From assembly GCA_965261645.1 (NCBI GenBank), contig CBDHDJ010000004.1, positions 2,040,752 to 2,104,751 of the forward strand: DNA of 64,000 bases, in the 5' to 3' direction. Under the pieces are notes generated by a model. That model was given only the letters and a program-made list of their open reading frames with translations, did not search any database and was not told the origin of the DNA. This stretch comes from Alphaproteobacteria bacterium (GTDB lineage Bacteria > Pseudomonadota > Alphaproteobacteria > SHVV01). The position numbers and the translations under genes are program-made. Of the stretch, positions 10,304 to 48,692 are shown piece after piece. Every line of letters starts with the position of its first letter. Position 1 is the stretch's first letter.

Positions 10304-10396
10304 GGGTGGTCGGGCGGCCTCGACCCCGGTACACTTGGCGCGACGGAATTCTCCACATTCCGTGTCGCGATGTCAGGGCAGGGGGGAGGCGCACGC

Positions 10397-12557: not shown

Positions 12558-12713
12558 GGTGTCCTCGCGGCCTGGCTTGATCGTGCCAAGACAACTCTAC
12601 TTGGTCTGCGGGGCGGCGGCGAGGGGGCTCAATCCTTATGACTCGCCTCATGGCTGCCGGGCCGATACCATGAGCGGTCGTCAGTCGGATGACTACGCCA
12701 GAGAGGGATGGAG

Positions 12714-14068
12714 ATGATTGCAGCGGACGATCTCGTGTGGCCCAAGGCGGATTTCAGCCGTGTGCCCTTCGCCGTTTATACCTCGCAGGATATTTTCGAA
12801 CGCGAGCAGGAGCGCATCTTCCACGGTCCGGTTTGGCTCTATCTCGGCCTCCAGGCGGAAATCCCCAATCCGGGTGATTTCATCCACACCTACGCCGGCG
12901 ATACGCCCGTCGTCGTGTGCCGCGCCGAGGACGGCACGATTCACGCCTTCATCAACCGCTGCGCCCACCGCGGCTCGCTGGTGGTGCGCGAGCGCCAGGG
13001 CAACGCCAAGGAGTTCATGTGCGTCTACCACCACTGGCTTTACAACCTCAAAGGTGAGCTCCTCGGCGTACCCTTCGAGCGCGGCGTCGGCGGCAAGGGC
13101 GGCATGCCGAAGGATTTCAAGAAGGCCAACCACGGCCTCAAGATGCTCAAGGTCGACACCTACAAGGAAGCGATCTTCGGCACCTTCAGCGATGAGGTTG
13201 AGCCGCTCAAGGAGTATCTCGGGCCGAGCATCCTTGGCGGCCTCGATCGCATCTTCTGCAAGCCGATCGAGATCTTGGGTCACATGCGCCAGCGCTTTCC
13301 GTCCAACTGGAAGGCCTATATCGAAAACCTCAACGATGGCTTCCATGCCGGGCTTTTGCACCAGCTGCCGGTGATCTTCGGCCTCCACCGCAACACCCAG
13401 GACACGCACATGGACCTGGATGAGTGGAAGCGCCACGACTACTTCTACGTCCATTTCGGTAGCGATACCGAGGACATGGTCCAGGAAGGCTACTCCGGCA
13501 CCACGCGCGGCAATCAGTACGACAACCCGATGGTGTTGGCGGACCCGCAGTCCTCAACTATCGCGATGAATGGAAGGACATGGTCTCGGTCGCCGGCGCC
13601 AGCATGTTCCCCTGCTTCCTCGTGGCCCAGCTCTCCAACTTCCTGATGACCCGCCAGGTCCGCCCCAAGGCGCCCAACGAGTTCGAGCTCTACTGGACGG
13701 CGTTCGGCTATGTCGATGACGATCCGGAACTCCGCAACATCCGCCAGCAACAGGTGACCTGGATGGGCTCGGGCGGCTGCATCTCGATCGAGGATTCCGA
13801 ATCCGGCGTCCTCATTCATCGCGCCATCCGCCGCGCGGACCGGGACTACTCCGTAATCGAAATGGGCGGTGTCGGCCCGATCGAGAGCCAGGACAACCAG
13901 ATGACCGAGGTCTGCCTTCGCGGCTTCTGGCGCTATTACGCCTATTTGATGGGCTACGAGCCGGTCGGCGGCTGGCCCAAGGGCTTCCCGCCCAAGAAGG
14001 CCAAGCTCCCGAAACTGATTGGGGGCCGCGCCAAAGTCAACGGCCGCCGGGCTCGCAAGGCCGCCTAA
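12714..14068 (+). pseudogene. Rieske [2Fe-2S] non-heme-iron oxygenase alpha subunit, paralog 2, interrupted by an apparent 1-nt deletion near 13550-13552
   Basis: It carries the same motifs as paralog 1. ...VLADPQ is in frame 0, then (F)LNYRDEWKDMVSVAGASMFPCFLVAQL is in frame -1. Paralog 1 reads cag ttc ctc where this copy reads cag tcc tc. The start at 12714 (MIAADD) parallels MINADD of paralog 1. Confidence 0.7.
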
Positions 14069-15920: not shown

Positions 15921-18143
15921 TCAAATGCCCAGGCTTTCGCTTGCCTCGGCAGGCAGGTCGCTGTTCACCGTGCCCCGCCATTCCGGCAGCTCGAAGTAGA
16001 ATGACGTCCCCTCGCCCAACGCAGTCCTGAAATCGATGCGCCCGCCCAGTTGCTCCATGATCTGCCGGCAGATCGCCAACCCAAGGCCGGTTCCGCCTTT
16101 GCGGCGCCTGTCCGACGAATCGGCTTGGGCGAACTTCTCGAATATGTGGGTGCGAAATTTTGGCGGAATGCCGAGGCCGTTGTCGGTCACGGTGACTCGG
16201 ATCTGTTCATTCCGGCGGGTGATGGTGATCGCTACCTGATCCCCCGTGGGCGAGAATTTGGCGGCGTTGGAAAGAAGTTTGGTGAGGACCTGGAGCAGGC
16301 GGTCGCTGTCCGCCCGGACGGTGGCGCCGGCTGCCCGATCCTCGACGGTGAAGAAGACATCAAACTGGCTGGCGAAGGCCTCGTTGGCTTCGATCGACTG
16401 TGTGACGAGCGTGCCAATGTCGAGGACGCCGATGTGATAGTCCATTCGTCCGGATTCGATCTTCTCGATGTCGAGGATGTCGTTGATGAGCCGGATCAAG
16501 CGATCGCAATTGCTGCGCGCGATCCCGACGAGCTCATTCGCCTTTTCAGAAGCGCCCCGGTAACGCCTTCGGCCAGCAATCCGAGAGAGCCGTTGATCGA
16601 GGTCAGCGGAGTGCGCAGCTCGTGACTCACCGTCGAAATGAACTCGTCCTTCAACTGCAAGACCTCTTTGCGCTCGGTGATGTCGTGGGCGGCGGCGTAG
16701 ATCAACTGGATCTCGGGGTTGGCAGTTGCATGCCACGTCAGCCAACGGTAGTTGCCATCCTGACACCGGTAGCGGTTTTCGAACTGCACCGTGACGTGTT
16801 CCCCTACCGCCAGCTTTTGCATCTCCAGCTCGGTTGCTTGACGATCATCGGGGTGGACGAATTCGAGGTAGGGCCGGGTAGCCAGCTCTTTCGCCGAGTA
16901 ACCGAATTTGTTCTGCCAGGCCGGGTTCAGCTTCCGGAAGTACCCGGTGAAGTCGGCGATGCAGAGCAATTCGAGCGAGACATCGAAGAATCCCTTCAGT
17001 TGCTCTGGCGGTCTTTGTCAGCTCTTTCGTTCGCTGCTCGACAAGCCGTTCGACGCTGCGGGTACGGTTCCCGCTGAGCAGCAAATAGGCCGCCAACAAA
17101 ACGGTAAACGCCATCCCGCCGGCCAGGAACCCCCAGGGTTCCCAGTTCGATAAATCGCTCAGAACCGCGCCGTTCGTCCAAGCCTCCATCGTCCAGGTTC
17201 GTCCGCCGACATCGAGCGAGCGGGTGAGAAGCGGATGGTCGAAATTGACGTCCTCGTCGGACTCAAGCTTGAAGTTTGCGGATGCCAGCGACAGGTGCGA
17301 GTGGGAGCGGTAGAGAAGCCGCCGGAGCTCCGGGTTGGTATCGTCATACACGTGGATGTCGAGCCCTTCGCTGCCGCCTGGCTGCTGGTCGAAGCGACCC
17401 ACAAAAGCCTGGTTCATCATGTCGCCGATGCGAAAGACGGCGAGGGCGAATCCCGCCAAATTCTCACGCCGTTGCTCCGTGGTCCCGTGGGGATGCCCTT
17501 TTTGGTATACCGGCGCAAAGATCAGAAGTCCCAGTTTGATCCCCTCATCCTGCACCAGTTTTATTGCGCTGCTGGCCACCATGGCGCCACTGTCGCGCTC
17601 TGTCTCCAGCGTTTCACTGCGGGCGGCGTTGGAGGCGAGGTCGAAACCCAACGCGGCTTCGTTCCCCGTGTAGGGCTCGACGTAGTAGACCGGGAAATAT
17701 TCGTCCCGCCCGCCGGCTGGGACCAACTGGTGCCCCGGCGTCCGTTCCGTGATCTAAAAGCCGGGGAACTCATCCTCGCGCGCGGCCTTTTCATAGTCGG
17801 CGCGCTCGGCCGCTGGAACGCGCGCTACCCACTCGAGGGCCTGAATGCTCGGGTAACGCTCCAACGCAGAGCGCACGAAGGTGCGGAACTCCTGCCGGTC
17901 GACAAAATTGGAGCCTTCGTAGAAGGCGACGATCGAGCGCAGGACTTCCTTGTTGCTTTCGATACGCCGTTCGACCAGATGAACGCGGCTGGACACGACT
18001 TCCTTGAGGCGGGCTTCGATACGGTCGATCTCGTGGACTTTGGCGAGGTGAAACGCCATGGCCGAGAGGGCGCAACCCATGATCACGGCCAAGATCACCG
18101 GTACATGGCGAAGAACGGGATTTTGCCTGAAGCGTGGCATCAC
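15921..18143 (-). pseudogene. CHASE-TM-PAS-HisKA-HATPase sensor histidine kinase, decayed (one in-frame TAG plus two frameshifts)
   Basis: Four consecutive ORF pieces (17754..18143, 16845..17726, 16496..16969, 15921..16766) together make up one kinase: CHASE-like N-terminus, PAS (HDITERK), H-box SHELRTPL, and an ATPase G-box (GGTGLGLAI). Lesions are a TAG at 17754..17756, a frameshift near 16996-17000, and another near 16556-16560. Confidence 0.75.
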
Positions 18144-18369: not shown

Positions 18370-20700
18370 TCAGGGCTTTGCGGCGCTTTGAATCGCGCGC
18401 CACACGCGTTCGGGCGTGGCCGGCATCTTGAGATGCGTGATACCGAGCTCGCCCAGCGCATCGAGGATGGCGTTGATGACCGCGGGCGGCGCTCCCACGG
18501 CGCCCGCCTCGCCCGCGCCCTTGACGCCGAGCGGGTTGGTGGTGCACGGGATCTCGTTCCACTTGATGGTCATCGCCGGCAGATCGTCGGCGCGTGGCAC
18601 GCTGTAGTCCATCAAGCTGCCGGTGAGCAACTGACCCGATTCCGCATCGTAGACTGTGTCCTCCATGACCGACTGGCCGATGCCCTGGACGACGCCGCCA
18701 TGAACCTGACCCGCGATCAGCAGTGGGTTGACCACCACGCCGAAATCATCGACGACAACGTAATCGACGAGCTCGCATGCCCCGGATTCGGGATCGATCT
18801 CGAGCTCGCAGATATGGCAGCCATTGGGATAGGTCGAGGCTTCCGGCGTGAACTCGGCCACGCCGGCAAGGGCATCGGATGGATTCCCGCCGTCCCGCCG
18901 CCGGGCTTCGCCGGCAATGTCGAAGAGGCTCAGCGAACGGTCGGTGCCGGCGACGGTGAATCGCCCCTCGGCGAACTCGAGATCTTGAGGCGCGACTTCG
19001 AGGCGCTCAGCCGCAAGGTCGCGACTCTTGGCGAGCAGATCATCGCTCGCCTGATCCACCGCCGGGCCAGCCGTCGCCATCGTGCGCGAGCCCCCGGTCA
19101 TGCTGCCGACGGTGATTTCTGCCGTGTCGCCCTGGCGCACGTTGATGCGTTCCATAGGTAGCTCGAGCCGCCCGGCGATAACCTGGGCGAGACAGGTTTC
19201 GTGGCCCTGGCCGGTCGCCTGGCCGCCGATCAACAGGGTCACCGTGTCGTCCTCCTCGGGTCGAATCACAGCCTCATCGCCGCCCATGTCGGGTCCGCCA
19301 CAGGCTTCAACATAGTAGGCCATGCCGATGCCGCGGAGCCGGTCCCGCCCCTTGGCTTCGTTACGTCGCGCCGAAAAGTCGTCCCAGCCGATCAACTCCA
19401 TGGCTCCATCCATGTTGCGTGCGAACTCGCCGCTGTCGTAGGTGACGTCGAGCGCCGTCGTATAAGGCATCGCATCGCTGGCGATGAAGTTGCGCCGGCG
19501 TAACTCGCAGGGATCAACGTCGAGCCGGCGCGCCGCCTCGTCGACCAGCCGCTCGGTGATATAGATCGCTTCGGCCGCACCGACGCCGCGATAGGCGTCC
19601 ACCGGTACGGTGTGCGTGAACACGCCTTTCACCGCGAAGTGGGCGGCCGGGATGGCATAAACGTTCGTGATGTGACCCGCAGCGACGAAGGTCGGCATCA
19701 TCCCGGCCGCGGTCGACAGATAGCCGCCCATATTGGCGTTGGTGTCTACTTTGAGGCCGAGAAAGTGCCCGTCCGCGTCGAGGGCCAGCGCCGCGTGGCT
19801 GGCATAGTCGCGACCCTGGGCATCGCCGGTGAACGATTGACTTCGGTCGCCGGTCCATTTGACTGGACGGCCGATTTTCCGGGACGCCCACATGGTGAGC
19901 GGATATTCGGGGTAGAGATAGCCCTTGGAGCCGAAGCTGCCACCGACATCCGGCGTGACGACGCGGATCTTCTCCGCCTCCACATGGAACACCTCGCCCG
20001 CGAGCATGTCGCGGAGAAAGTGGGCGCCCTGGGAGGTGGCATAGAGCGTGTAGCTCTCTTCTTTCGAATCGTAAAGGCCGATCGCCGCGCGCGGCTCGAT
20101 GGAGTTGGGCACCAGCCGGTTGTTGAAGAGATCAAGCTCCACGACATGGGCGGCACCGGCGAAAGCGTCCTCGGTGGCGGCGGCGTCTCCCAGCTCCCAA
20201 TCGAAGCTGGTGTTGTTGGGCTGGTCATCCCAAACCTGCGCGACGTCGGCCTGGGTGGCCTTGGCCGTGTCGATGACGACGGCGAGGGCCTCGTAACTCA
20301 CCTCGATCATCTCGGCGGCATCGCGAGCCTGTGCATAAGTGTCGGCCACGACAAACGCGACCGCGTCACCGACATGGCGGACGCGCTCGCGCGCCAGCAC
20401 CGAGTGGGGCGGCACGGTGTTTTCGCTGCCGTCGCGGTTGGCGACGAGACCGTAAGAGGGAAGAACGCCAACGCCGTCGGCATCCGCATCGGCTGCGGTG
20501 AGCACGCAAAGGACACCCGCGCAGGCTTGCGCGTCCTTAACGTCAATGCCGCGGAGCGCCGCATGGGCGTGGGGCGAGCGGAGGACATAGGCGTACGCTT
20601 GATCGGGCAAACTGATGTCGTCGGTATAGCGGCCCGTGCCGGTAAGAAATCGCCTATCCTCATTGCGCCTGACCGGTTGCCCGATACCGCATTTCTTCAT
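18370..20700 (-). CDS. Xanthine dehydrogenase/CoxL family molybdopterin-binding large subunit, tandem copy 3 (776 aa), with a variant active-site loop
   Basis: Hammerhead-type N-terminus GQPVRRNEDRRFLTGTGRYTDD and C-terminal NPLGVKGAGEAG. The loop reads AYRGVGAAE instead of AYRGAGRPE. A GAGGGAG RBS lies upstream. Confidence 0.8.
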   Translation of the reverse strand: MKKCGIGQPVRRNEDRRFLTGTGRYTDDISLPDQAYAYVLRSPHAHAALRGIDVKDAQACAGVLCVLTAADADADGVGVLPSYGLVANRDGSENTVPPHSVLARERVRHVGDAVAFVVADTYAQARDAAEMIEVSYEALAVVIDTAKATQADVAQVWDDQPNNTSFDWELGDAAATEDAFAGAAHVVELDLFNNRLVPNSIEPRAAIGLYDSKEESYTLYATSQGAHFLRDMLAGEVFHVEAEKIRVVTPDVGGSFGSKGYLYPEYPLTMWASRKIGRPVKWTGDRSQSFTGDAQGRDYASHAALALDADGHFLGLKVDTNANMGGYLSTAAGMMPTFVAAGHITNVYAIPAAHFAVKGVFTHTVPVDAYRGVGAAEAIYITERLVDEAARRLDVDPCELRRRNFIASDAMPYTTALDVTYDSGEFARNMDGAMELIGWDDFSARRNEAKGRDRLRGIGMAYYVEACGGPDMGGDEAVIRPEEDDTVTLLIGGQATGQGHETCLAQVIAGRLELPMERINVRQGDTAEITVGSMTGGSRTMATAGPAVDQASDDLLAKSRDLAAERLEVAPQDLEFAEGRFTVAGTDRSLSLFDIAGEARRRDGGNPSDALAGVAEFTPEASTYPNGCHICELEIDPESGACELVDYVVVDDFGVVVNPLLIAGQVHGGVVQGIGQSVMEDTVYDAESGQLLTGSLMDYSVPRADDLPAMTIKWNEIPCTTNPLGVKGAGEAGAVGAPPAVINAILDALGELGITHLKMPATPERVWRAIQSAAKP

Positions 20701-20733
20701 GCGCTCGCTCCCTCAATCGCGCCGCTCGGCGCG

Positions 20734-23058
20734 TCAGCCGCTGGTGCCGTGAATGGCCTGCCAAATGGTCTCGGGCGTGGCCGGCATGTCGATGTGGGTC
20801 ACGCCGAATTCGGACAATGCGTCCACGATCGCATTGATGATCGCCGGTGCCGCGCCCACCGTGCCGGCCTCGCCGGCGCCCTTGACGCCAAGCGGGTTGG
20901 TGGTGCACGGGATCTCGTTCCACTTGGTCGAGAGCGGCGGAAAATCCGACGCGCGCGGCATGCCGTAATCCATGAAGCTCCCGGTCAAAAGTTGGCCGGA
21001 CTCTTCGTCGTAGATGGCATCCTCCATCAGCGCCTGGCCGGCGCCTTGCGCGATGCCGCCATGGACCTGGCCGGCGATGAGCAAGGGGTTGATGACCTTG
21101 CCGAAATCATCGACCACCGTGTAGGCGACAAGCACGATCGCGCCAGTGTCCGGGTCGATCTCGACTTCAACGATGTGACAACCATTGGGGTAGGTCGGGG
21201 CCTCCGGCTGGTACTCGCCCGCACCCTTCAACCCGTTGGTTTCGCCGCTTCGTTCGCGCGCCGCGGCACCGACATCGAACAAGCTCTTCCAACGGTCGGT
21301 GCCCGCCACCGTAAACCGGCCGTCGGCGAATTCGATGTCGCTGCCCGACACCTCCAGGAGTTCGGCGGCGATAGCCCGACCGTTGTCAATGACGTCTTTC
21401 ACCGCCCTGGTGACGGCAGCGCCGCCTGCAACCATGGAGCGCGAGCCCCCTGTGCCGCCCCCCCGCGCGATTTCGGCCGTGTCACCCTGGCGCATGTTGA
21501 TCTGGTCGAACGGGACGCCGAGCCCTTCGGCCACGAGTTGAGCGAAGCAGGTCTCGTGGCCCTGTCCACTTGCCTGGGTGCCGATCAAGAGCGTCACGGT
21601 TTCGTCATCCTCGACGCGGAGGGTGGCGTTCTCCGGGCCGAGTGAGGGCGAGGCGCTGGCCTCGACGTAGTAGGCGATGCCGATGCCGCGCCGCTTGCCG
21701 CGCTGACGGGCGGCATCGCGACGCTTGTCAAACCCGCCCATGTCGGCGATGTCGCGCGCCTCGGCCATGTTGCGGCCGAACTCACCGCTGTCGTAGGTGC
21801 CGCCAAACGCCGTGGTGAAGGGCATGGCCTCGGGCGCGATGAAATTGCGCTGGCGCAGCTCGAGCGGATCGAAGCCGAGCTCCCGCGCCGCCTTGTCGAT
21901 CAGGCGCTCGATCAGATAGCTCGCCTCGGGCCGGCCGGCGCCGCGATACGCATCGACTGGAATGGTGTGGGTGAACACGCCCTTGACCACTTGATACGCC
22001 GCCGGAATCGCGTAGACCCCGCCTTGAACCCCCTTGCACGCATCCGTCGGCACGACCGTGGCGAAATTCGAGAGATACGAGCCCAGATTGGCGATCGTGC
22101 TGATGCGGTAGCCGAGAATCTTGCCCTCGGAATCAAAGGCGAGCTCAGCCGCCGTGACGTGGTCGCGGCCTTGGGCGTCGCTGATGAAGGACTGGCTTCG
22201 GTCGCCGGTCCATCTCACGGGTCGGCCAATCTTTTTTGACGCCCACAGAATCAGCGGATACTCGGCGTAAAGATAGAGCTTCATGCCGAAGCCGCCACCG
22301 ACATCAAGGGTCACGACGCGCACCTTCTCCCGCGGCACCTGCAGCACGCTCGTCGCGAGCATATTCTGAATGTAATGCACGCCCTGGGAGACGGTGTGGA
22401 TCGTGTAGCTCTCGTCGGCCGCGTCGTAGGCGCCGATCGCCGCGCGCGGCTCCATGGCGTTGGCGACAACCCGATTGTTGATGAGCTCGATCCCAACGAC
22501 ATGCGCCGCACCGGCAAACGCCTGGTCGGTCGCGTCTTTGTCGCCGGTCTCCCAGTCGAAACAGATGTTGTTCGCGGCATCGTCCCACACCAGCGGCGCG
22601 CCGGGCCCGATCGCCTTGGCGGTGTCGGTGATCGATGGCAGGGGCGCGTAATCGACCGCGATGAGCTCCGCCGCGTCGCGCGCCTGGTTAGCCGTCTCCG
22701 CGACCACCAATGCGACCTCATCACCGACGTGGCGCACCCGGTCCCGTACCAGCGGCCAATGAGGCGGCGCGTGAGACTTGCTGCCGTCGCGATTGTCGAG
22801 CTGAACAAAGGAGGGATTGCTTCCCAGGCCATCGGCTTCGGCGTCGGCGCCGGTGAGCACGCACAGCACGCCGGGCACCGCCTTCGCCGCACTGGTATCG
22901 ATGCCGCGGATCGCCGCGTGAGCGTGGGGTGAACGGAGGACAAAGGCATACGCCTGGTCCGGCAGGTTCAAGTCGTCGGTGTACTGGCCCTGCCCCGTGA
23001 GCAGGCGCTGGTCTTCCTTGCGCGTGACCGGCTGACCGGCACCGAACTTCATCACCAC
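20734..23058 (-). CDS. Xanthine dehydrogenase/CoxL family molybdopterin-binding large subunit, tandem copy 2 (774 aa)
   Basis: It shares the family motifs (AYRGAGRPE, NPLGVKGAGEAG). The gap to the next gene is 33 nt. Confidence 0.8.
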   Translation of the reverse strand: MVMKFGAGQPVTRKEDQRLLTGQGQYTDDLNLPDQAYAFVLRSPHAHAAIRGIDTSAAKAVPGVLCVLTGADAEADGLGSNPSFVQLDNRDGSKSHAPPHWPLVRDRVRHVGDEVALVVAETANQARDAAELIAVDYAPLPSITDTAKAIGPGAPLVWDDAANNICFDWETGDKDATDQAFAGAAHVVGIELINNRVVANAMEPRAAIGAYDAADESYTIHTVSQGVHYIQNMLATSVLQVPREKVRVVTLDVGGGFGMKLYLYAEYPLILWASKKIGRPVRWTGDRSQSFISDAQGRDHVTAAELAFDSEGKILGYRISTIANLGSYLSNFATVVPTDACKGVQGGVYAIPAAYQVVKGVFTHTIPVDAYRGAGRPEASYLIERLIDKAARELGFDPLELRQRNFIAPEAMPFTTAFGGTYDSGEFGRNMAEARDIADMGGFDKRRDAARQRGKRRGIGIAYYVEASASPSLGPENATLRVEDDETVTLLIGTQASGQGHETCFAQLVAEGLGVPFDQINMRQGDTAEIARGGGTGGSRSMVAGGAAVTRAVKDVIDNGRAIAAELLEVSGSDIEFADGRFTVAGTDRWKSLFDVGAAARERSGETNGLKGAGEYQPEAPTYPNGCHIVEVEIDPDTGAIVLVAYTVVDDFGKVINPLLIAGQVHGGIAQGAGQALMEDAIYDEESGQLLTGSFMDYGMPRASDFPPLSTKWNEIPCTTNPLGVKGAGEAGTVGAAPAIINAIVDALSEFGVTHIDMPATPETIWQAIHGTSG

Positions 23059-23147
23059 GTCGGATCCTCCCTGTACCTCACGGTGTCGCGCTGGGTGGCT
23101 CTTGCCCGTTCAGCCTATGATGACCGTGCGCCGTTGGCGGAACAATA

Positions 23148-25472
23148 TTAAATCCCCCTGGCGGCGTGGATGGCCGACCAGACGCGTTCGGGGGTGGCCG
23201 GCATGTCGATGTGGGTGATGCCGTACTCGGCGAGCGCGTTAACGATGGCGTTGATGACCGCCGGCGGCGCGCCGATGCTGCCGGCTTCGCCTGCGCCCTT
23301 GACGCCGAGCGGATTGGTGCGGCAGGGGATCTCGTTCCAGCTTACGTCCATCATGGGCAGATCGCTCGCCCGCGGCATGGCGTAATCCATGAAACTGCCG
23401 GTGAGGAGTTGACCCGTCTCCTCGTCGTAGACGGCGTTCTCGAGGAGCGCCTGGCCGATCCCCTGGGCGATGCCGCCATAGACCTGGCCGGCCGCCAACA
23501 GCGGGTTGATCACGGTGCCGAAGTTGTCGACGGCGGTAAAGGCAACGACTTCGAGCGCGCCTGTCTCGGGGTCGATTTCCACCTCGCAGACGTGGAAGCC
23601 GTTGGGGTAGGTCGAGGCCTCAGAGCTCGCCTGCGCCCGGCCTTCGAGGGGATCCGCACCGATCCCGCCGTGGCCCTCACGGGCGACGGCCGCGACGTCG
23701 AAGATGCCGACACCCCGGTCGGTTCCGGTGACGATGAATTGACCCTCGGCGAACTCGATGTCCGTGGCGGCGGCATCGAGCAGTTCGGCGGCGGTCGGCT
23801 TGGCCTTGTCGATCACGGTCTCGACCGCGGCGTTCACGGCGAGCCCGCCGATCACCATCGAACGCGAACCCAGGGCGCCGCCGCCGAGCGACGTTTCGCT
23901 GGTGTCGCCCTGGCGGACATGGATTTTCTCAAAGTCGATGCCGAGAGCATCCGTCAGCATCTGCGCATAGGACGTCTCATGACCCTGACCGTTGGCCTGC
24001 GTACCGATGAACAGCGTGACCGTCTCATCCTTCTCAAAGCGAATTGCGGCTTCCTCGGGTCGGAGGTAAGGACCAGCGCAGGTGTCGATATAGCCCGAGA
24101 TGCCAATGCCGCGAAGCCGGTCGCGCGTGCGCGCTTCCTCGCGCCGAGCGGGGAACTCGCTCCACCGGGCCGCGGCGAGACTATCGTCGAGGTTGCGGGC
24201 GAACTCGCCCGTGTCATAGGTCATGCCGAGCGCCGTGGTGTAGGGCATCGCCTCGGGCGAAATGAGGTTGCGCCGGCGGATTTCGGCGGGATCCAGACCG
24301 AGTTCCTGAGCCGCCAGATCGATCAACCGTTCGATGCGGTAGATCGCCTCGGGCCTTCCTGCGCCGCGGTAGGCATCGACCGGCACGGTATTGGTGAACA
24401 CGCCCTTCACCGCAACATACGCATCGGGGATCGCGTAGACGCTGGTCTGGATACCGCCATAAAAACTCTGCACCACCGTCGCCACGTTGGAGAGGTAGGC
24501 GCCCATGTTGGCGTAGGATTCCGAGCGCACGGCGAGGAAACGGCCATCATCGTCGAACGCAAGCTCGGCGTGGGTGACGTTGTCGCGGCCATGCGCATCG
24601 CTGATGAAGGACTGGCTGCGATCGGCGCACCATTTGACCGGCCGGCTTACTTTTTTGGCGGCCCACAGGGCCAGCGCCTGATCCTGATAGACATGGATCT
24701 TCGCGCCGAATCCACCGCCCACGTCGGGCGTGATCACCAGCATCTTCTCGGGCGGGACCTGAAAAATATCGTTCGCGAGAACGTCGCGGAAACGGTGGGA
24801 GGACTGGGTGCAGGTATAGATGGTGTAGCGCTCACCCGCGGCGTCGTGGAGCGCGAGCGCCGCGCGCGGCTCGATCGGGTTCGGCGCGACCCGGTTGTTG
24901 ACGAGATCGAGCTTGACGACGTGCGGCGCTGAAGCGAACACGGCATCGATCGCTTCGCGCTCGCCCTGCTCGACGAAAAAGCAGATATTGCCGGGGGCGT
25001 CGTCCCAGATTTGCGGGGTTCCCTCAGCCGCTGCCGTTGCAGTCGCCGCGGCGACTGGGAGGGGCCGGTAGTCGATGGCGATCAACTCTGCCGCATCGCG
25101 CGCCTGATCGAGCGTTTCGGCGACGACGAGCGCCACCGCATCGCCGACGTGATGAACCCGGCCCTTGGCCAGCATCGGATGCGGCGGGTAGGCGTTCTGG
25201 CTGCCGTCCACATTGTCGATGCGGTAGATGCACGGCACGTCACTGAGGCCGTCGGCCTCGACGTCGGCGCCGGTCAGAACGGCCAGCACGCCAGGCGCGG
25301 CCCCAGCCGTCCTCGTGTCAATCGCGCCGATCTCGGCATGCGCGTGCGGTGAGCGCAAGACGTAGGCGTAAACCTGACCGGGCACGTCTATGTCGTCGGT
25401 ATAGCGGCCCGCGCCAGTGAGAAAACGAGGATCTTCCGCCCGCCTCACCGGTTGGCCGATGCCGAACTTCAT
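23148..25472 (-). CDS. Xanthine dehydrogenase/CoxL family molybdopterin-binding large subunit, tandem copy 1 (774 aa)
   Basis: The start was moved to ATG 25472 (MKFGIGQPVRRAEDPRFLTG) by analogy with the two paralogs. The ORF-track start at 25757 overlaps the upstream RidA gene in another frame. Confidence 0.8.
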   Translation of the reverse strand: MKFGIGQPVRRAEDPRFLTGAGRYTDDIDVPGQVYAYVLRSPHAHAEIGAIDTRTAGAAPGVLAVLTGADVEADGLSDVPCIYRIDNVDGSQNAYPPHPMLAKGRVHHVGDAVALVVAETLDQARDAAELIAIDYRPLPVAAATATAAAEGTPQIWDDAPGNICFFVEQGEREAIDAVFASAPHVVKLDLVNNRVAPNPIEPRAALALHDAAGERYTIYTCTQSSHRFRDVLANDIFQVPPEKMLVITPDVGGGFGAKIHVYQDQALALWAAKKVSRPVKWCADRSQSFISDAHGRDNVTHAELAFDDDGRFLAVRSESYANMGAYLSNVATVVQSFYGGIQTSVYAIPDAYVAVKGVFTNTVPVDAYRGAGRPEAIYRIERLIDLAAQELGLDPAEIRRRNLISPEAMPYTTALGMTYDTGEFARNLDDSLAAARWSEFPARREEARTRDRLRGIGISGYIDTCAGPYLRPEEAAIRFEKDETVTLFIGTQANGQGHETSYAQMLTDALGIDFEKIHVRQGDTSETSLGGGALGSRSMVIGGLAVNAAVETVIDKAKPTAAELLDAAATDIEFAEGQFIVTGTDRGVGIFDVAAVAREGHGGIGADPLEGRAQASSEASTYPNGFHVCEVEIDPETGALEVVAFTAVDNFGTVINPLLAAGQVYGGIAQGIGQALLENAVYDEETGQLLTGSFMDYAMPRASDLPMMDVSWNEIPCRTNPLGVKGAGEAGSIGAPPAVINAIVNALAEYGITHIDMPATPERVWSAIHAARGI

Positions 25473-25510: not shown

Positions 25511-26701
25511 CTAGCCTCCGCTGCCCGGCTTGTAGGCGATCGCGTCGATCTCGACGCGCATGCCCGGCAGGGCGAATTTCTGAATGCCGAGCACGTGGCT
25601 CGCCGGCTTGCCGCTGCCGAAATACTTCTGCCGCACCGGGTCGATCTTCTCCTGATCGTTGATGTCGAGGAGGTAGAAGTTGGCCTTGACGATATCGCCG
25701 AAGTCCATGTTTGCGGCTTTGAGGACCTCGCCGAGATTGCTGAGCGTCTGGTTGCACTGCGCCGCGATGTCGTCCCCGCCGACGAGCTCGAGATCACCGG
25801 TCCACGGGCCGGCGCCCGCCAGATGCAAAAAGTCACCGGCTTGCACAGCATCGGTGTAGTGGCTGATCGGCTCGTTCAGCTGGGGCAGGCGGATCTCCTT
25901 GCGCTTGGGCGCACTACCGCTCGGCTTGTAGCACGCCGCCTCGATCTCGACGTTAAGGTTTGGCACCGCGAGCTTGACCTCGAACAGCGTGCTCGCCGGC
26001 CGATGCTTGCCGAAGAACTCCTCGCGCACCGCGCTGACCTTCTGACGGTCGTCCACATTGGTGAGGTAGACGATGACCGACGAGATATCCTCGAAGTCCA
26101 TATCGATGGCGTTGAGCTTCCTCTTCATGTTGGAGAGCGTGACGCGGGTCTGCTCCGCGATGTCGTCGCCGCCGATGATGTTCCAGTCCTTGTCGTTGGC
26201 GACGGCGGCGAGCCAGGCGTAATCGCCGCATCTCACGATGTGGGTATAGTGGCTGAGCGGCGTCGCGAAGCCCGGCGGGACGATCTCCTCGCGCGCCGGC
26301 GCACCGCTCGTCGCCTTGTAGGCGAAGGCATCGACCTCGAGCTTCGCGCCCGGACGGGACAGCTCATTCACGCCGACCAGGGTGCTGGTCGAGCGCGGAT
26401 CACCGAAGAACTCCTGGCGCATCGGATTGATGGCCGGCCGGTCGTTGCAGTCGAGCAGCGAGACCTTGAAGTCGATGATGTCGCCGAAGCCCATGTCGTT
26501 GGCCTCCAGCGCCGTCTTGATGTTCTCGCAGGTTTGGCGGGCCTGGGCGGCGATGTCGCCCTCGCCGACGACATTGCCCTGGGCGTCATAGGGCCCGGCG
26601 CTCGCCAGGAAACAAAAATCACCGGCCGCGACCGCATGGGCCGAGTGGCCCGGCGGCGGGGCCAGCCCGTCAACGTTGATCTCGCGTCGTGGACCTGCCA
26701 T
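25511..26701 (-). CDS. Protein made of three fused RidA/YjgF/L-PSP (endoribonuclease L-PSP) domains, 396 aa
   Basis: It splits by eye into three ~130-aa units. Each has the RidA layout (..SHYT..GD..L.G......GDDIAAQ...L.N....L.A..M.F.DI.....YL.......R...F....PAST........G..VEI...AYKP.SG). Confidence 0.75.
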   Translation of the reverse strand: MAGPRREINVDGLAPPPGHSAHAVAAGDFCFLASAGPYDAQGNVVGEGDIAAQARQTCENIKTALEANDMGFGDIIDFKVSLLDCNDRPAINPMRQEFFGDPRSTSTLVGVNELSRPGAKLEVDAFAYKATSGAPAREEIVPPGFATPLSHYTHIVRCGDYAWLAAVANDKDWNIIGGDDIAEQTRVTLSNMKRKLNAIDMDFEDISSVIVYLTNVDDRQKVSAVREEFFGKHRPASTLFEVKLAVPNLNVEIEAACYKPSGSAPKRKEIRLPQLNEPISHYTDAVQAGDFLHLAGAGPWTGDLELVGGDDIAAQCNQTLSNLGEVLKAANMDFGDIVKANFYLLDINDQEKIDPVRQKYFGSGKPASHVLGIQKFALPGMRVEIDAIAYKPGSGG

Positions 26702-26784
26702 GGAACTTCCCCCCTTGGTGATTCAAGTGTTGAACAGGCGCACCCCCCGGTTGCCGTGCTTTGGGGTGCGTAGCGGAGTCGGTC

Positions 26785-27981
26785 TTAGCCGCCGCTGCCT
26801 GGCTTGTAGGCGACCGCGTCGATCTCGATGCGCATGCCCTCGAGGGCGAACTCATCGATTGCGATGAGGGTGCTGGCGGGTCGGCTGTTGCCGAAATATT
26901 TCTCGCGTACGGGATTGATGATGGTGCGGTCGGCCACGTCGTCGAGATAGACGGTGACTTTGACCACGTCCTCGAAGCCCATGCTGGCGGCCGCGAGAAT
27001 CTCACCCAAGTTCGACAGCGTCTTGTCGCACTGCGCCGCGATATCGTCCCCGCCGACAAGCTCGAGATCGCCGGTCCACGGGCCGGCGCCCGACAGGAAC
27101 AGGAAATCGCCGCACTGCACGCCGTCGGTGTAATGGCTGATCGGCTCGTTGAGCTGTGCAAGGCGGATCTCCTTGCGTTTGGGACCGCCGCTCTTGGGCT
27201 TATAGGCGACCGATTCGATCTCGATATTCATGCCCGGCACCGCCAGCCGGGGGATACCGATCAGCGTGCTCGCGGGCCTGTGCTCGCCGAAAAATTCCTG
27301 GCGCAACTCGTTGACCGCGTGCCGGTCATGGACGTTGGGGAGAAAGACGATGACGCGGGCCACGTCCTCGAAGCCCATGTCGACCGATGCAAGCATCTTC
27401 CGCAGGTTCTCGAGCGCGACGCGAGCCTGCGCCCGAATATCGTCACCGCCGACGATGCCGCCGTCGGCATCGAACGGGCAGGCGCCGGCGAGAAACGCGA
27501 AATCGCCGCAATCGACGACGTCGGTATAATGGCTGAGTGGCGTGGGGAAGCCGTCGAGGCGCAGCTCCTTGCGCGGCGCTCCGCCATCGCTTGGCTTGTA
27601 GGCCATGCACTCCGCCTCGACCAACAGCTCGGGAAACGCGAGCGCGCTGCACTCGACAAGCGTGCTGGCCGGCCGGAAGTCGCCAAAATTCTTCTGCCGC
27701 GCCGGGTTGATCTTGGGCCGGTCGTCGGTGTTGGGAAGGAAGGCCTCGAAGTTGACGATATTCTCGAAACCCATGCCGGCGGCATCGAGAACCGCCTTGA
27801 TGTTCTTGTGCATCTGCTCCGACTGCGCGGCCGGATCGCCGACGCCGACGACGTTGTTTTCGCCATCGACCCCGACCTGTCCCGACAGGAACAGGAGATC
27901 GCCGCACAACACGCCGTCGGTGTAGTGGCTGATCGGCTCGCCCGCCGTGGCGATGCGAATCTCTTTCTTCGGAGCACCCAT
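26785..27981 (-). CDS. Protein made of three fused RidA/YjgF/L-PSP domains, 398 aa (paralog of 25511..26701)
   Basis: It has the same three-unit architecture. Unit 3 (PKRKEIRLAQLNEPISHYTDGVQCGDFLFLSGAGPWTGDLELVGGDDIAAQC...) is nearly identical to unit 3 of the neighbouring gene. Confidence 0.75.
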   Translation of the reverse strand: MGAPKKEIRIATAGEPISHYTDGVLCGDLLFLSGQVGVDGENNVVGVGDPAAQSEQMHKNIKAVLDAAGMGFENIVNFEAFLPNTDDRPKINPARQKNFGDFRPASTLVECSALAFPELLVEAECMAYKPSDGGAPRKELRLDGFPTPLSHYTDVVDCGDFAFLAGACPFDADGGIVGGDDIRAQARVALENLRKMLASVDMGFEDVARVIVFLPNVHDRHAVNELRQEFFGEHRPASTLIGIPRLAVPGMNIEIESVAYKPKSGGPKRKEIRLAQLNEPISHYTDGVQCGDFLFLSGAGPWTGDLELVGGDDIAAQCDKTLSNLGEILAAASMGFEDVVKVTVYLDDVADRTIINPVREKYFGNSRPASTLIAIDEFALEGMRIEIDAVAYKPGSGG

Positions 27982-28212
27982 GACATCCTCCCTGATGAGC
28001 GCATGATCTCAGCGTTCTGTGATTATGCGGCCATCCTAGCCGCGCGAAGGAGGCCCTGCAATAGGACGACAGCGGCCTCGACCAACGCCGTATGGCGCTC
28101 AGTGGTTGAAACCCGGGCTTGTTGTTAAACTGCTCTCATTCGATCCGGCGGTGTCCGTCCGCAGGCGCGTTTGAGCCTGCGAATCGGGGCTGCGGTCTGA
28201 CACAAGAGCGCA

Positions 28213-29850
28213 ATGGAACGCCACATGAGTACACAGGAACCAAACGCCGCGGCCGGCGACCCGGTCGCGGGCAGGCTGCAAAAACTCATCGACATCGGAA
28301 TCGCCCTGTCGGCGGAGCGCAATCACGACCGCTTGATGGAGCGTATCCTGACGGAAGCGCAGAAGCTCTGTAACGCGGACGGCGGCACGCTTTACTTGCG
28401 CGATGAGGAGGATCACCTGGTCTTCACCATCGTGCACAAGGATTCCCTCGGCGTTGCCATGGGCGGGACCACCGGCAGCGAGATCACCTTCCCGCCGCTT
28501 GAGCTTTACGATTCGCAAACCGGCGCGCGCAACGAAAAGAACGTCGCGACTTACGCGGCGTTGGCCGAGCGCACCGTCAACATCGCCGATGCATACGAAG
28601 CTGAGGACTTCGATTTCAGCGGCACCCGGACGTTCGACGAGCGGACAGGTTACCGTTCCAAGTCTTTTCTGACGGTTCCGCTCATGAACTATGACGGCGA
28701 TATCATTGGCGTTCTCCAGCTCATCAACGCGGTGGACACAGAGACCGGCGAGGTGATCGTCTTCGGGGCGCGCCTGCAGCAGATCGTCGAGGCGCTCGCT
28801 TCGCAGGCCGCGGTAGCGCTCGACAACCAGATGCTGCTGGAGGCGCAACGGGACCTGCTCGAATCGTTCATCCGTTTGATCGCGGTCGCCATCGACGAGA
28901 AGTCGCCCTACACGAGCGGTCACTGCCAGCGCGTGCCCGTGCTCGCCGAAATGATCGCCGAGGCCGCCTGCCAGGCGCACCAGGGTCCGTTCAAGGACTT
29001 CAGCCTGACCGAAGACGAGATGTACGAGCTCCGCATCGCGGCGTGGATGCACGACTGCGGCAAGGTCACCACGCCGGAATATGTGGTCGACAAGTCGACC
29101 AAGCTAGAAACCATCTACGACCGCATCGATTTGGTCACAACCCGCACAGAGATCCTCAAGCGGGACGCCGAGATCGCTTACCTGCGCGCCGTGGCCGGCG
29201 GAAGCGGCGATGAACCCGCGCTCCGGGCCGAGCGCGATGCGACCCTGGCGCGCCTCGCCGATGAGCTCGCCTTCATCGAGAAAACCAATATCGGAGGCGA
29301 ATTCCTGTCGGACGACGATAAGGAACGGGTGACGGAGATCGCGACTCGGTCGTGGAGCGATGGCGAGGGTGAGGAGGTGCCGTTTCTCTCCGACGACGAG
29401 GTCGCCAATCTGAACATCTCGCGCGGCACGCTCACCCACGACGAGCGCGAGGTCATCAACAACCACGTGGTGGTGACGATCAAGATGCTGGAGCAGCTGC
29501 CGTTTCCCAAGAACCTGCGTCGCGTGCCCGAATACGCCGGCGGCCATCACGAGCGGATGGACGGCTCGGGCTACCCGCTGGGCTTGACGCGCGATCAGAT
29601 GTCGATCCCGGCGCGCATGATGGCGCTGGCCGACATTTTCGAGGCCCTGACTGCGGCCGACCGGCCCTACAAGAAGGCCAAACCGGTGACCGAATCAATC
29701 GGCATCATGAGTCGCATGATGAAGACAGATCACATCGACGCCGAGTTGTTCGAGCTGTTCCTCAAAGCCGGCGTCTACCGGAAATATGCCGAGAAATTCC
29801 TGCCCTCAGAGCAGGCGGACGAGATAGATATCAGAGCCTATCTGAACTGA
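28213..29850 (+). CDS. GAF domain / HD-GYP domain protein (putative c-di-GMP phosphodiesterase)
   Basis: The N-terminal GAF-like region (LCNADGGTLYL..., GVLQLINA) is followed by an HD region (HCQRV..., WMHDCGK) and HHERMDGSGYP. Confidence 0.75.
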   Translation: MERHMSTQEPNAAAGDPVAGRLQKLIDIGIALSAERNHDRLMERILTEAQKLCNADGGTLYLRDEEDHLVFTIVHKDSLGVAMGGTTGSEITFPPLELYDSQTGARNEKNVATYAALAERTVNIADAYEAEDFDFSGTRTFDERTGYRSKSFLTVPLMNYDGDIIGVLQLINAVDTETGEVIVFGARLQQIVEALASQAAVALDNQMLLEAQRDLLESFIRLIAVAIDEKSPYTSGHCQRVPVLAEMIAEAACQAHQGPFKDFSLTEDEMYELRIAAWMHDCGKVTTPEYVVDKSTKLETIYDRIDLVTTRTEILKRDAEIAYLRAVAGGSGDEPALRAERDATLARLADELAFIEKTNIGGEFLSDDDKERVTEIATRSWSDGEGEEVPFLSDDEVANLNISRGTLTHDEREVINNHVVVTIKMLEQLPFPKNLRRVPEYAGGHHERMDGSGYPLGLTRDQMSIPARMMALADIFEALTAADRPYKKAKPVTESIGIMSRMMKTDHIDAELFELFLKAGVYRKYAEKFLPSEQADEIDIRAYLN

Positions 29851-32874: not shown

Positions 32875-34319
32875 CAGCCCGTTGATTAAGTCGGCGCCGT
32901 CTGATTCTCTGGTTCCCTGATTTGCAGGGGGATTTGCCGATGGCGATGGGACGGCAGAAGGATGGTCAGGGGGACCTGATGGTGAGCTGGTCGGAGATGC
33001 CGCGCTCTCCGGGTCATGTGTTTTATGACCGCTTGCAGTCGGTGCTGATCGAGGGCGGCTTCGACGCCTTTGCCGAGGCGAGCTGCCGGCCTTATTACGC
33101 GGTCCGGATGGGCGCGCCCTCGGTGCCGCCCGGGCGCTATTTCCGGATGCACCTGGTGGGCTACTTTGAGGGCATCGACAGCGAGCGCGGTCTGGAGTGG
33201 CGCTGCTCGGACTCGCTTTCGCTGCGGGCGTTCCTGCGACTGGGGAGCCGTGATCGGGTACCGGACCATTCCTGGCTGTCACGGAGCCGCACGCGCCTGC
33301 CCCATGAAGTCCACGCGGCGGTCTTCGACTGGGTTCTGGTGCTGATCGCCGAGGCGGGGCTGATCAAGGGCGAGCGCATCGGCGTCGATGCCTCGACCAT
33401 GGAGGCCAACGCGGCGCTGCGGAACATCGTGCGGCGCGACAACGGCGAAGGCTACCGGGAGATGCTGGAGCGCCTGGCCCGGGAAAGCGGGGTCGAGACA
33501 CCCACGGCCGAGGACCTGGCGCCTCTGGACCGGAAGCGCAAGGGCAAGAAGCTTTCCAACACGGATTGGGTTTCGAAGAGCGACCCCGAGGCCAAGATCA
33601 CCAAGATGAAGGACGGCACGACGCATCTGGCCTACAAGCCCGAGCACGCGGTGGATCTGGACACCGGCGCGGTGGTGGCGGCCGAGCTGCACCCGGCCGA
33701 TGAGGGCGACACCACGACGCTTTCCAAGACCCTGGCGAAGGCCGAGGCAAACCTCGAGGCGGTGGATGCGGCACCGACATCGGAGGACCCGGCCGAATGC
33801 GTCCCCGACAAAGGTTATCACTCACGGGCGGTCTTGAGGGCTCTGAACGACAGTCCCTGGAAGACCCGGATCGCGGCGCCCAAGCAGACCGGCTTTTCGC
33901 GCTGGCACGGTGATGAGGCGGCGCGGCGCGCGGTCACCAATAACCGTGCGCGGCTCAAGTCCGGGGTCGCCCGCGAGGCCTTCAAGCTGCGCGCCGAGAT
34001 CGTCGAGCGCTGCTTTGCCCACAACCTCGATCGTGGCGGCATGCGACGAACCTGGCTGCGCGGGCGAGAGAATGTGCACAAGCGATACCTGCTCCACGTC
34101 GCCGGCCACAATCTATCGTTACTGATGCGCCAGCTCATCGGCGCCGGCACCCCGCGGGAGGCCGTGGCGGGCGGATATGGCGGTATTTTCGTTCTGCTCA
34201 CGCCCACCGGGGCCATGCTGGTGGCACGGGGGGGCTCGCAAAGCGGCCAGACGGCTTTCGCCGCCGCATTCCTCATCTGGGAGTGAGAGCCGGAAAAAGC
34301 CACTTAATCAACGGGCTGC
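32875..34319 (+). mobile_element. IS5-family insertion sequence (~1.45 kb) with 17-bp perfect terminal inverted repeats and a 4-bp CTAA target duplication
   Basis: The left inverted repeat CAGCCCGTTGATTAAGT (32875-32891) equals the reverse complement of 34303-34319. CTAA lies at 32871-32874 and at 34320-34323. Confidence 0.8.
32940..34286 (+). CDS. IS5-family DDE transposase
   Basis: ATG 32940 follows AGGGGGA. It has an InsH-type N-terminal region (VFYDRL...RPYY...GRYFRMHLVGYFEGIDSERGLEW) and a DDE C-terminal region (GVDASTMEANA..., DKGYHS...). Confidence 0.75.
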   Translation: MAMGRQKDGQGDLMVSWSEMPRSPGHVFYDRLQSVLIEGGFDAFAEASCRPYYAVRMGAPSVPPGRYFRMHLVGYFEGIDSERGLEWRCSDSLSLRAFLRLGSRDRVPDHSWLSRSRTRLPHEVHAAVFDWVLVLIAEAGLIKGERIGVDASTMEANAALRNIVRRDNGEGYREMLERLARESGVETPTAEDLAPLDRKRKGKKLSNTDWVSKSDPEAKITKMKDGTTHLAYKPEHAVDLDTGAVVAAELHPADEGDTTTLSKTLAKAEANLEAVDAAPTSEDPAECVPDKGYHSRAVLRALNDSPWKTRIAAPKQTGFSRWHGDEAARRAVTNNRARLKSGVAREAFKLRAEIVERCFAHNLDRGGMRRTWLRGRENVHKRYLLHVAGHNLSLLMRQLIGAGTPREAVAGGYGGIFVLLTPTGAMLVARGGSQSGQTAFAAAFLIWE

Positions 34320-45907: not shown

Positions 45908-46201
45908 ATGGACCTTGAAACCGCGACCACGATGATACGCGCCAAAGTGGGCGAGGACTCCGGCCTCGGTGCCACGGTGAAGTTCGCCTTCGACGAGGGT
46001 GTGATCTTCATCGATGGCGCGGCCAGCCCGAACGAGGTGAGCAACGAAGACCGCGCGGCCGAGTGCACCATCGCCATGGCGCTCGATGATTTCGCGAGCA
46101 TGATCGAAGGCGAGCTCGACCCGACGACCGCCTTCATGATGGGCAAGCTCAAAGTCGACGGCCCGATGGCGACCGCGCTCAAGCTCTCGGGGTTGATCTA
46201 G
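45908..46201 (+). CDS. SCP2 sterol-carrier-like domain protein
   Basis: ATG 45908 follows GGGAGA. DFASMIEGELDPTTAFMMGKLKVDGPMATALKL is a typical SCP2 C-terminus. The stop TAG at 46199-46201 lies in the CTAG that flanks the IS. Confidence 0.75.
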   Translation: MDLETATTMIRAKVGEDSGLGATVKFAFDEGVIFIDGAASPNEVSNEDRAAECTIAMALDDFASMIEGELDPTTAFMMGKLKVDGPMATALKLSGLI

Positions 46202-46220
46202 CAGGCTGCTGAACAAGTCA

Positions 46221-47515: not shown

Positions 47516-47577
47516 CCGAAGGAATCACAGAATCATGTCACAACTGCAAATGCGAGGACTTTTTCAGCAGCCTGCTA

Positions 47578-48629: not shown

Positions 48630-48692
48630 CTAGCAGGCTGCTGAAAAAGTCCTCGCATTTGCAGTTGTGACATGATTCTGTGATTCCTTCGG

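Follow-up and report, generated by a model that had tools for sequence, protein, structure and literature searches.

Two tandem genes for triple-Rid proteins with serine at the catalytic arginine position, adjacent to form-II CoxL-like genes in an alphaproteobacterial genome

Rid proteins are ubiquitous, and a defined chemistry exists only for those that bear the arginine numbered 105 in Escherichia coli RidA, with the Arg-less forms and the triple fusions being uncharacterised. Polypeptides made of three tandem Rid domains were named 3x-RidA and interpreted as covalently linked trimers by Niehaus et al. (2015, BMC Genomics 16:382, PMC4433059), with EF_0115 of Enterococcus faecalis V583 as an example. 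According to the same survey, Ser replaces Arg105 in about 10% of RidA proteins, these Ser variants are placed within the RidA subfamily, Rid4 and Rid7 have Trp at this position, and the residue is variable in Rid5 and Rid6 (Niehaus et al., 2015). Here, we analysed a 64,000-nucleotide stretch of DNA, hereafter the window, from an Alphaproteobacteria bacterium (assembly GCA_965261645.1, contig CBDHDJ010000004.1, positions 2,040,752 to 2,104,751 of the forward strand), in which two neighbouring genes, A and B, each encode three tandem Rid domains in one polypeptide and are thus of the 3x-RidA kind. All six of these domains have Ser at position 105, and both genes appear to head an operon that continues into genes for form-II CoxL-like molybdenum enzyme subunits.

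In its basic outline this picture is unchanged from the literature, where the architecture has been present since 2015. Our profile search of 1.84 billion representative sequences returned 544 proteins at E ≤ 1e-30, and three Rid domains are found in 124 of the 145 new representatives listed, which makes at least 124 further clusters at 50% identity. Their sources are taxonomically varied, among them Planctomycetota, Actinobacteria and a euglenozoan transcriptome, and every protein bears a generic name. At the Arg105 position, the patterns among the representatives listed include Arg in all three domains (RRR, 26 cases), Ser in all three (SSS, 11 cases) and many mixed types. Given the published naming and this census, the fusion is a known and widespread one, and neither it nor the Ser variant is new. 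A reading made beforehand from the DNA letters alone (the sequence-only reading) had held that its finding would fail if the triple architecture proved to be a well-characterised family of known function. As it turns out, the architecture does have a name and a wide distribution, though no work on the function of a 3x-RidA, or of EF_0115, came up in our literature search, so that this objection applies only in part. What is new here is a lineage in which a Ser105/Arg91 domain was probably triplicated separately, an old tandem duplication with asymmetric pocket decay in B, and a conserved operon with a form-II CoxL-like gene.

Layout, coding quality and predicted fold of A and B

In the list of open reading frames (ORFs), gene A (26785-27981, minus strand) encodes 398 aa and gene B (25511-26701, minus strand) 396 aa, and the two lie intact and head-to-tail, exactly as the sequence-only reading had it. 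Unit 1 of A spans 27580-27981, unit 2 spans 27184-27579 and unit 3 spans 26788-27183, followed by the stop codon at 26785-26787. The corresponding units of B are at 26303-26701, 25913-26302 and 25514-25912, with the stop codon at 25511-25513, all again on the minus strand. Alignment with MAFFT bore out the unit boundaries that had been drawn by eye, with units of ~130 aa each and linkers of the form AYKPxxGG / (A)PxRKEI. Rather as anticipated, the Pfam model PF01042 (Ribonuc_L-PSP, cut-off 27.3) matches three stretches in A (246.8 bits, E = 4e-74) and three in B (211.3 bits, E = 4e-63), which places both proteins in the Rid/YjgF superfamily with the three domains apiece that had been claimed for them. 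The NCBIfam model TIGR00004 likewise matches three stretches per protein. For the RutC model TIGR03610, the three domain scores of each protein add up to 110.9 and 144.1 bits (38-60 bits per unit), below the cut-off of 169.1, and there are no rut genes near A and B.

As tandem arrays of paralogues and insertion sequence (IS) copies abound in the window, one may ask whether A and B are a collapsed or expanded assembly repeat, or else a pair of decaying pseudogenes. However, the units are too diverged for an assembly repeat, with protein identities of 44-56% among those of A and 40-44% among those of B (25-31% for all six against E. coli RidA). Both ORFs are intact and have Shine-Dalgarno sites, which for A is GGGAGGA at 27986-27992, 5 nt before the ATG, and for B is a G-rich sequence ahead of the start. 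Moreover, the A cluster holds 12 sequences and the B cluster 11, across many independent contigs, and the ratio of nonsynonymous to synonymous substitution rates (dN/dS) between A and its orthologue at locus L088 (L numbers denote loci from our genome searches) is ~0.2. These findings refute the artefact, to which we attach a vanishingly small probability. Together with a GC content of 0.84 at the third codon positions of A, the intact frames, ribosome-binding sites and dN/dS make both genes look functional.

AlphaFold2 models, for which a 33-sequence family alignment served as input, reached a predicted local distance difference test score (pLDDT) of 95.1 for A and 94.9 for B, with a predicted template modelling score (pTM) of 0.93 for each. 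The models support a confident single-chain globular fold for both proteins, and the same strand and helix pattern recurs in each third of the chain. When these models were searched against the Protein Data Bank (PDB) with Foldseek, the only full-length matches were chorismatases, namely FkbO (4bps), Hyg5 (5ag3) and 5a3k, with ~360-368 aligned columns and target-normalised TM-scores of 0.62-0.66. The remaining top matches were single RidA/YjgF chains, each covering one unit at a target-normalised TM-score of ~0.8-0.94. The single chain of a chorismatase is reportedly itself a pseudo-trimer of YjgF-like domains. A sequence search gave no solved 3x-Rid structure, with single-domain chains as its only matches. 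A and B are accordingly modelled, and in this respect in keeping with the three-in-one fold proposed earlier, as predicted covalent pseudo-trimers that resemble the Rid homotrimer and have three inter-unit clefts.

Pocket residues and the exchange between positions 105 and 91

With residues numbered as in E. coli RidA and the units aligned by MAFFT, Ser occupies the Arg105 position in all six units, the surrounding motif being PAST in A1, A2, A3 and B2, STST in B1, and PASH in B3. The catalytic Arg of the RidA imine/enamine deaminases (TIGR00004, PRK11401) is hence found in no unit, and both its loss and the PAST or PASH motif in most units had been correctly seen by eye. The sequence-only reading had gone on to compare this pattern with the Arg-lacking Rid subfamilies, but the residue in the window is Ser and not the Trp of Rid4 and Rid7, so that the Ser-for-Arg minority of RidA probably fits better than Rid4-7 with their Trp or variable residue. 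Glu120 is retained in all six units and Tyr17 in five. With regard to the seven invariant pocket residues Tyr17, Gly31, Asn56, Asn88, Arg105, Pro114 and Glu120 (Burman et al., 2007), units A1, A2 and A3 each hold five (Tyr17, Gly31, Asn56, Asn88 and Glu120) and deviate by Arg105 to Ser and Pro114 to Ala. In gene B, three of the seven are present in B1, three in B2 and four in B3, and no unit in the window has the full set.

From 31 family members, we derived a unit signature that consists of S-H-Y-T-D (residues 15-19), G-D (24-25), S-G (30-31), Arg84, Asn88, Arg91, P-A-S-T-L (103-107), Glu120 and Tyr126. All three units of A carry this series, from SHYTD and GD through Arg84, Asn88 and Arg91 to PAST and Glu120, whereas B1 is without Tyr17, Asp19, Ser30, Gly31 and Pro103. 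Three non-equivalent clefts per protein had been envisaged for the fusion; this holds for B, whose unit 1 is degenerate, but hardly for A, in which the three units share one signature. In nature, then, the locus offers a clear case of a trimer fused into one chain, with three equivalent pockets in one paralogue and diverged pockets in the other.

Single-domain relatives bear the identical signature, letter for letter in 55 of 80, and relative to E. coli RidA the clade has exchanged Arg105 for Ser, Tyr91 for Arg and Phe84 for Arg. We followed positions 105 and 91 through 415 Rid domains taken from distant representatives at 50% identity (P0185-P0329). Here, Arg105 goes along with Tyr or Phe at position 91 in 80 domains and with Arg91 in 2, and Ser105 goes along with Arg91 in 90 domains and with Tyr or Phe in 2. 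Arg91 and Arg105 are, in other words, almost mutually exclusive across this sample, a covariation for which we found no description in accessible papers. In TdcF, the guanidinium group of Arg105 is hydrogen-bonded in bidentate fashion to Asn88 (Burman et al., 2007), and positions 84, 88 and 91 fall on one face of the same helix. Taken together, the near-exclusion, the bond to Asn88 and the shared helical face suggest that the carboxylate-anchoring Arg has been relocated to position 91 rather than lost. The exchange thereby hints, at the level of sequence, at a route by which the pocket may have been remodelled.

It could be argued that A and B are ordinary housekeeping RidA proteins, that is, 2-aminoacrylate/iminobutanoate deaminases that were fused by chance. 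Such a view has the database names on its side ('RidA family protein', '2-iminobutanoate/2-iminopropanoate deaminase'), as well as whole-protein TIGR00004 scores of 173 and 214 bits that exceed the cut-off of 106. Yet these totals are sums over three sub-threshold domains, since TIGR00004, although the top model for every unit, gives a single unit 48-83 bits against the cut-off of 106.25. Moreover, Arg105 is absent from every unit, the family is rare and limited to a few lineages of metagenome-assembled genomes (MAGs; at least 7 loci among the 79 best loci of 185,579 species genomes), and the surroundings are those of a catabolic operon and not of ilvA or pyridoxal phosphate enzymes. A housekeeping role is, in our judgement, highly improbable.

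Another explanation is that the Ser105/Arg91 pocket carries out some other chemistry, as a tautomerase, isomerase, decarboxylase or hydrolase/lyase that acts on a ring-cleavage product or a heterocycle. There would be a parallel for this in the chorismatases, where the same pseudo-trimeric fold has been reused for a new reaction, and these enzymes are indeed the best full-length structural matches of A and B. The absence of Arg105 from six of six units and the conserved polar set of His16, Asp19, Arg84, Arg91, Ser105 and Thr106, which is unlike that of RidA, point the same way, as does the published proposal of other functions for Rid proteins without the Arg (Niehaus et al., 2015). By sequence, however, A and B are not chorismatases, as the model TIGR04444 scores 24.4 and 24.0 bits against its cut-off of 325. 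Gene A also holds five of the seven classic pocket residues, Glu120 included, and the near-exclusive swap between positions 105 and 91 looks like a carboxylate anchor that was kept. On balance, we rate a change of chemistry as unlikely, though a serious contender.

Origin of the lineage and the duplication of the triple gene

Protein identity between A and B rises along the chain, from 42% in unit 1 (dS 1.10, dN 0.52) over 55% in unit 2 (dS 0.76, dN 0.34) to 73% in unit 3 (dS 0.82, dN 0.20). With dS alike in all units and dN dropping from unit 1 to unit 3, the whole triple gene was duplicated long ago, and the similarity of unit 3 is due to stronger constraint and not to a recent event. The impression that unit 3 of the two genes is almost identical did not survive this comparison, given its 73% protein identity, a third-codon-position identity of about 0.5-0.67 and a longest identical nucleotide run of 22 nt. 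Recent gene conversion between A3 and B3 was considered and rejected on the same grounds, as the third-position identity is no higher than elsewhere and dS is ~0.8, against 0.76-1.1 for the other units. The further proposal that the triple gene was duplicated as a whole, after the fusion had arisen, is well borne out by the similar dS of each unit pair and by the unit identities within the family, which are 50-53% for units at the same position and 40-44% across positions. Copy A has kept three near-equivalent pockets, and copy B has diverged, most of all in unit 1. Tandem pairs of 3x-Rid genes are also present at loci L012 and L085, with other combinations of paralogues.

The window family comprises about 33 clusters at 90% identity and two at 50%. 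From a search of 185,579 GTDB species genomes, in which the 79 best loci were kept, at least seven loci have a full-length match at ≥48% identity, counting L014, whose three-domain status is unchecked. All of them are MAGs; four bear the label Alphaproteobacteria, and there is one each under Defluviicoccus and Rhizobium sp. Q54. The lineage is a rare alphaproteobacterial one, with the triple gene duplicated later. Since same-position units are more alike than cross-position ones, the fusion predates the family. Against the RRR group, distant SSS proteins or other 3x groups, in contrast, identity is 25-30% at any unit position, and this lack of a positional signal means that the window proteins are probably an independent fusion. 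Single-domain proteins of the SHYTD type come closer, and among the 79 best GTDB loci their top tblastn segments match the query at 50-60% identity. The simplest reading is probably an independent triplication inside the single-domain Ser105/Arg91 clade. A single ancient fusion common to all 3x-Rid proteins found no support, the identity being flat at 25-30% and the best cyclic shift random. For the architecture and this evolutionary history taken jointly, our confidence is very high.

Some more distant relatives deserve mention. Very divergent additional 3x-Rid genes, 22-33% identical to A, lie close to the family member at L007/L011 (3838-4983) and at L016 (30-1181 and 9953-11107). The latter is a Chloroflexi MAG locus and so holds two divergent copies, a recurrence of multiple paralogues within one locus. 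Natural fusions in the same Rid clade join 3x-Rid to glyoxalase/VOC, thiamine diphosphate (ThDP) enzyme domains to one Rid, and an amidase to one Rid; sequences with fusions or extra length are P0030 (630 aa), P0042, P0044, P0045, P0061, P0073, P0094, P0095 and P0118. There is, in addition, a large group of 224-aa proteins made of one SHYTD-type Rid domain and ~95 further residues.

Operon context, proposed role and likeness to known systems

An operon appears to begin with A and B as its first two cistrons and to run into three tandem genes, X1 (23148-25472), X2 (20734-23058) and X3 (18370-20700), all on the minus strand, which encode molybdopterin-binding large subunits of the xanthine dehydrogenase family (XDH-L). 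The intergenic gaps A-B, B-X1, X1-X2 and X2-X3 measure 83, 38, 89 and 33 bp. X2 is 61% identical to X1, and X3 is 58-62% identical to X1 and X2. In Pfam terms, all three proteins consist of Ald_Xan_dh_C, MoCoBD_1 and MoCoBD_2, and all have the G-x-K-G-x-G-E motif with the catalytic Glu. The loop of form-I CoxL is VAYRCSFR, as compared with AYRGAGR in form-II, and it is the latter that is found in X1 and X2. By their domains, loop and Glu motif, X1-X3 are overall form-II CoxL-like, X3 being without a regular-expression match to AYRGAGR. Each scores under every NCBIfam equivalog cut-off, and the nearest solved relatives are CoxL (8uem), quinoline 2-oxidoreductase (1t3q) and 6-hydroxypseudooxynicotine dehydrogenase (7dqx).

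The window holds another Rid/XDH-L pair, for which the Pfam and NCBIfam searches identified X4 (53392-55749, minus strand, 785 aa) upstream of a single-domain Rid of 144 aa (52878-53312, minus strand), 79 bp apart. This small protein has Arg84 and Arg91, and Ala at position 105 within the PCAV that the sequence-only reading had noted. X4 is 43-47% identical to X1-X3, and X5 (4302-6659, plus strand) is 68% identical to X4. As an observation in its own right, the 64 kb contain five form-II CoxL-like genes, of which three form a tandem array (18370-25472, minus strand).

Beyond the window, an XDH-L gene lies within 6 kb at 6 of 12 non-redundant 3x loci, and it follows 3x-Rid directly in the window, L088, L089, L012, L085 and L013. 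The XDH-L proteins next to 3x-Rid constitute one clade, with 51-66% mutual identity and 41-47% to X4 and X5, and in many of their loci the pair is flanked upstream by a divergent GAF-HD gene and downstream by a short-chain dehydrogenase/reductase gene. Other family members adjoin amidohydrolases, an amidase, Rieske oxygenases, NicX, an FAA hydrolase, a VOC/glyoxalase protein and a ThDP enzyme.

This adjacency might be read to mean that 3x-Rid is a non-catalytic partner of orphan CoxL-like subunits, be it a structural subunit, a carrier of substrate or ligand, or a maturation or holdase factor, which would account for L subunits without adjacent CoxS and CoxM genes. A six-frame regular-expression scan of the 64-kb window, run with no hidden Markov model search, indeed gave no motifs of CoxS (2Fe-2S) or CoxM (FAD) despite the five XDH-L genes. 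Moreover, the tight order of 3x-Rid followed by XDH-L is kept in six loci, the partners appear to co-diverge, and there is the second pair in the window. However, a Rid fold without a redox cofactor site is no substitute for the Fe-S and FAD electron path, XDH-L is missing at half of the 3x loci, the pocket is strongly conserved, as expected for ligand chemistry, and CoxS and CoxM genes may sit elsewhere in the genome. We therefore consider a purely non-catalytic partnership very unlikely.

Upstream of A, the intergenic region at 27982-28212 is shared between the minus-strand operon and a divergent gene (28213-29850, plus strand) that Pfam identifies as GAF plus HD (HD-GYP type, PF13487). The same neighbour recurs at L089 (8163-9677), L012 (6565-8190) and L013 (6248-7915), and it may regulate the operon, act as its partner in signalling, or simply be a syntenic neighbour. 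A molybdenum cofactor or other riboswitch ahead of the operon was rejected as a candidate, as no Rfam family reaches its gathering score in the window and only weak, chance-level matches occur at 27900-28300. As for a promoter upstream of the operon, the sole consensus-like match is on the plus strand and no commoner than in shuffled sequences.

Several other features of the window were recorded in passing. Five tandem amidohydrolase paralogues (PF01979) occupy 55894-64000 (plus strand), repeat every ~1650 bp and are 66-91% identical to the reference copy in nucleotides; their top NCBIfam model, a Caulobacter-type Xaa-Pro dipeptidase, is far under its cut-off, and the fifth copy exceeds the window end. 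Four tandem copies of ~976 bp, 76-83% identical in nucleotides, lie at 6-3400 (plus strand) and encode proteins of ~300 aa, two of which were scanned and gave no Pfam match. Two IS copies at 46198-47587 and 48621-50010 form a 1390-bp inverted repeat that is 100% identical and encloses 1033 bp, in a composite-transposon-like arrangement, and encode a DUF772/DDE_Tnp_1 transposase of 378 aa; a third, distinct DUF772/DDE transposase is at 32922-34286. A CHASE ORF (15921-16766, minus strand) and a HisKA/HATPase ORF (16845-17726, minus strand) stand back to back in different frames, as if a frameshift or an error of sequencing had divided a single sensor histidine kinase, and at L012 and L085 a histidine kinase occupies the equivalent position. 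Lastly, a duplicated block of ~1.2 kb (10397-11568 and 12714-13885, 79-83% nucleotide identity) overlaps a 320-aa ORF (10370-11332) and a Rieske-domain ORF (12708-13646).

In the explanation that we favour, the 3x-Rid pocket would bind a carboxylate or a ligand resembling a 2-oxo or 2-imino acid, with Arg91 (and Arg84), from the helix that bears Asn88, standing in for Arg105. The protein would then hydrolyse or tautomerise a reactive intermediate of the imine/enamine type, which would belong to the catabolic pathway served by the adjacent molybdenum enzyme. There is precedent in aminophenol and nicotine catabolism, where Rid proteins act in this way or are predicted to. A role of this kind with an imine/enamine or 2-oxo acid is what the retained Glu120, Tyr17, Asn56 and Asn88, the Arg swap from 105 to 91, the ThDP fusions and the catabolic context point to when combined. 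More broadly, the fusions of Rid-clade domains to ThDP-enzyme, amidase and glyoxalase domains suggest 2-oxo-acid or amide chemistry. The handling of such intermediates by A and B is a tentative proposal that may well be wrong. The favoured explanation in its entirety, comprising the architecture, lineage, operon and putative mechanism, we see as close to evenly balanced, though tilting slightly towards doubt.

Weighing against this explanation are several points. Only the periodicity of the helix and the covariation place Arg91 in the cleft, and each unit receives only 48-83 bits from TIGR00004. The loci with 3x-Rid and XDH-L are mostly syntenic alphaproteobacterial MAGs, so that their adjacency could partly reflect ancestry and not selection, and half of the 3x loci are without a nearby XDH-L gene. 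We know of no assay of a Ser-type Rid. Plant and Salmonella RidA cannot hydrolyse imines without Arg105, and Rid7, which has no Arg at this position, showed no activity when assayed with imines (Niehaus et al., 2015).

One may also picture the conserved operon of 3x-Rid and orphan form-II CoxL, along with the divergent GAF-HD gene, as a dedicated two-enzyme module, in which Rid generates or detoxifies a C=N or 2-oxo intermediate that the molybdenum enzyme oxidises, the Arg having moved to the Asn88 helix and the fused clefts having specialised, as in gene B. We think this quite unlikely, but, if true, such a module would open an experimental way to the substrates of form-II CoxL-like enzymes and to what Rid proteins without the Arg do. 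Even apart from this, the conserved form-II CoxL-like partner could guide the discovery of substrates for both families.

Among known systems, AmnE, RutC and the Rid6 protein of A. tumefaciens S33 are Rid-fold proteins of catabolic clusters that remove, or are predicted to remove, an enamine or imine. AmnE is a 2-aminomuconate deaminase with a Rid fold (PDB 6izh), and the Rid6 ORF belongs to a nicotine cluster that also has XDH-family molybdenum hydroxylases, like the neighbourhood of A and B. These proteins are, however, single-domain ones from other subfamilies, and to our knowledge there is no experimental link between pathway-dedicated Rid proteins and form-II CoxL-like enzymes. The chorismatases of the FkbO, Hyg5 and XanB2 type (4bps, 5ag3 and 5a3k) are alike over the full-length fold (about 365 columns), but share only 12-18% sequence identity with A and B, whose TIGR04444 scores are far beneath the cut-off; set against them, each unit of A and B remains plainly identifiable as a Rid domain and has a conserved pocket. 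Canonical RidA, TdcF and YjgF (2uyn, 1qu9 and 2dyy) resemble the individual units in fold, with a target-normalised TM-score of ~0.9 at 28-38% identity. Nonetheless, they are assembled from three separate 125-aa subunits and have Arg105 as the carboxylate anchor, whereas A is one chain with Ser105 and Ala114. Another known group is the Ser-for-Arg105 minority of RidA, in which Ser takes the place of the catalytic Arg with Glu120 and Tyr17 kept, as in the window units. The 2015 survey records only that this minority exists, and what the present analysis adds is the linked change of Tyr91 to Arg, the triple fusion, the SHYTD loop and the setting of the genes. With 3x-RidA itself (Niehaus et al., 2015), A and B share the three Rid domains strung in tandem along a single chain of about 400 aa. 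The published class is described as a subset of the RidA subfamily, and in our census the Arg-bearing RRR type, to which the window proteins show no positional homology, accounts for 26 of the representatives listed. A and B, by comparison, have Ser in all units together with SHYTD, Arg84 and Arg91, and lie in an operon with a CoxL-like molybdenum enzyme.

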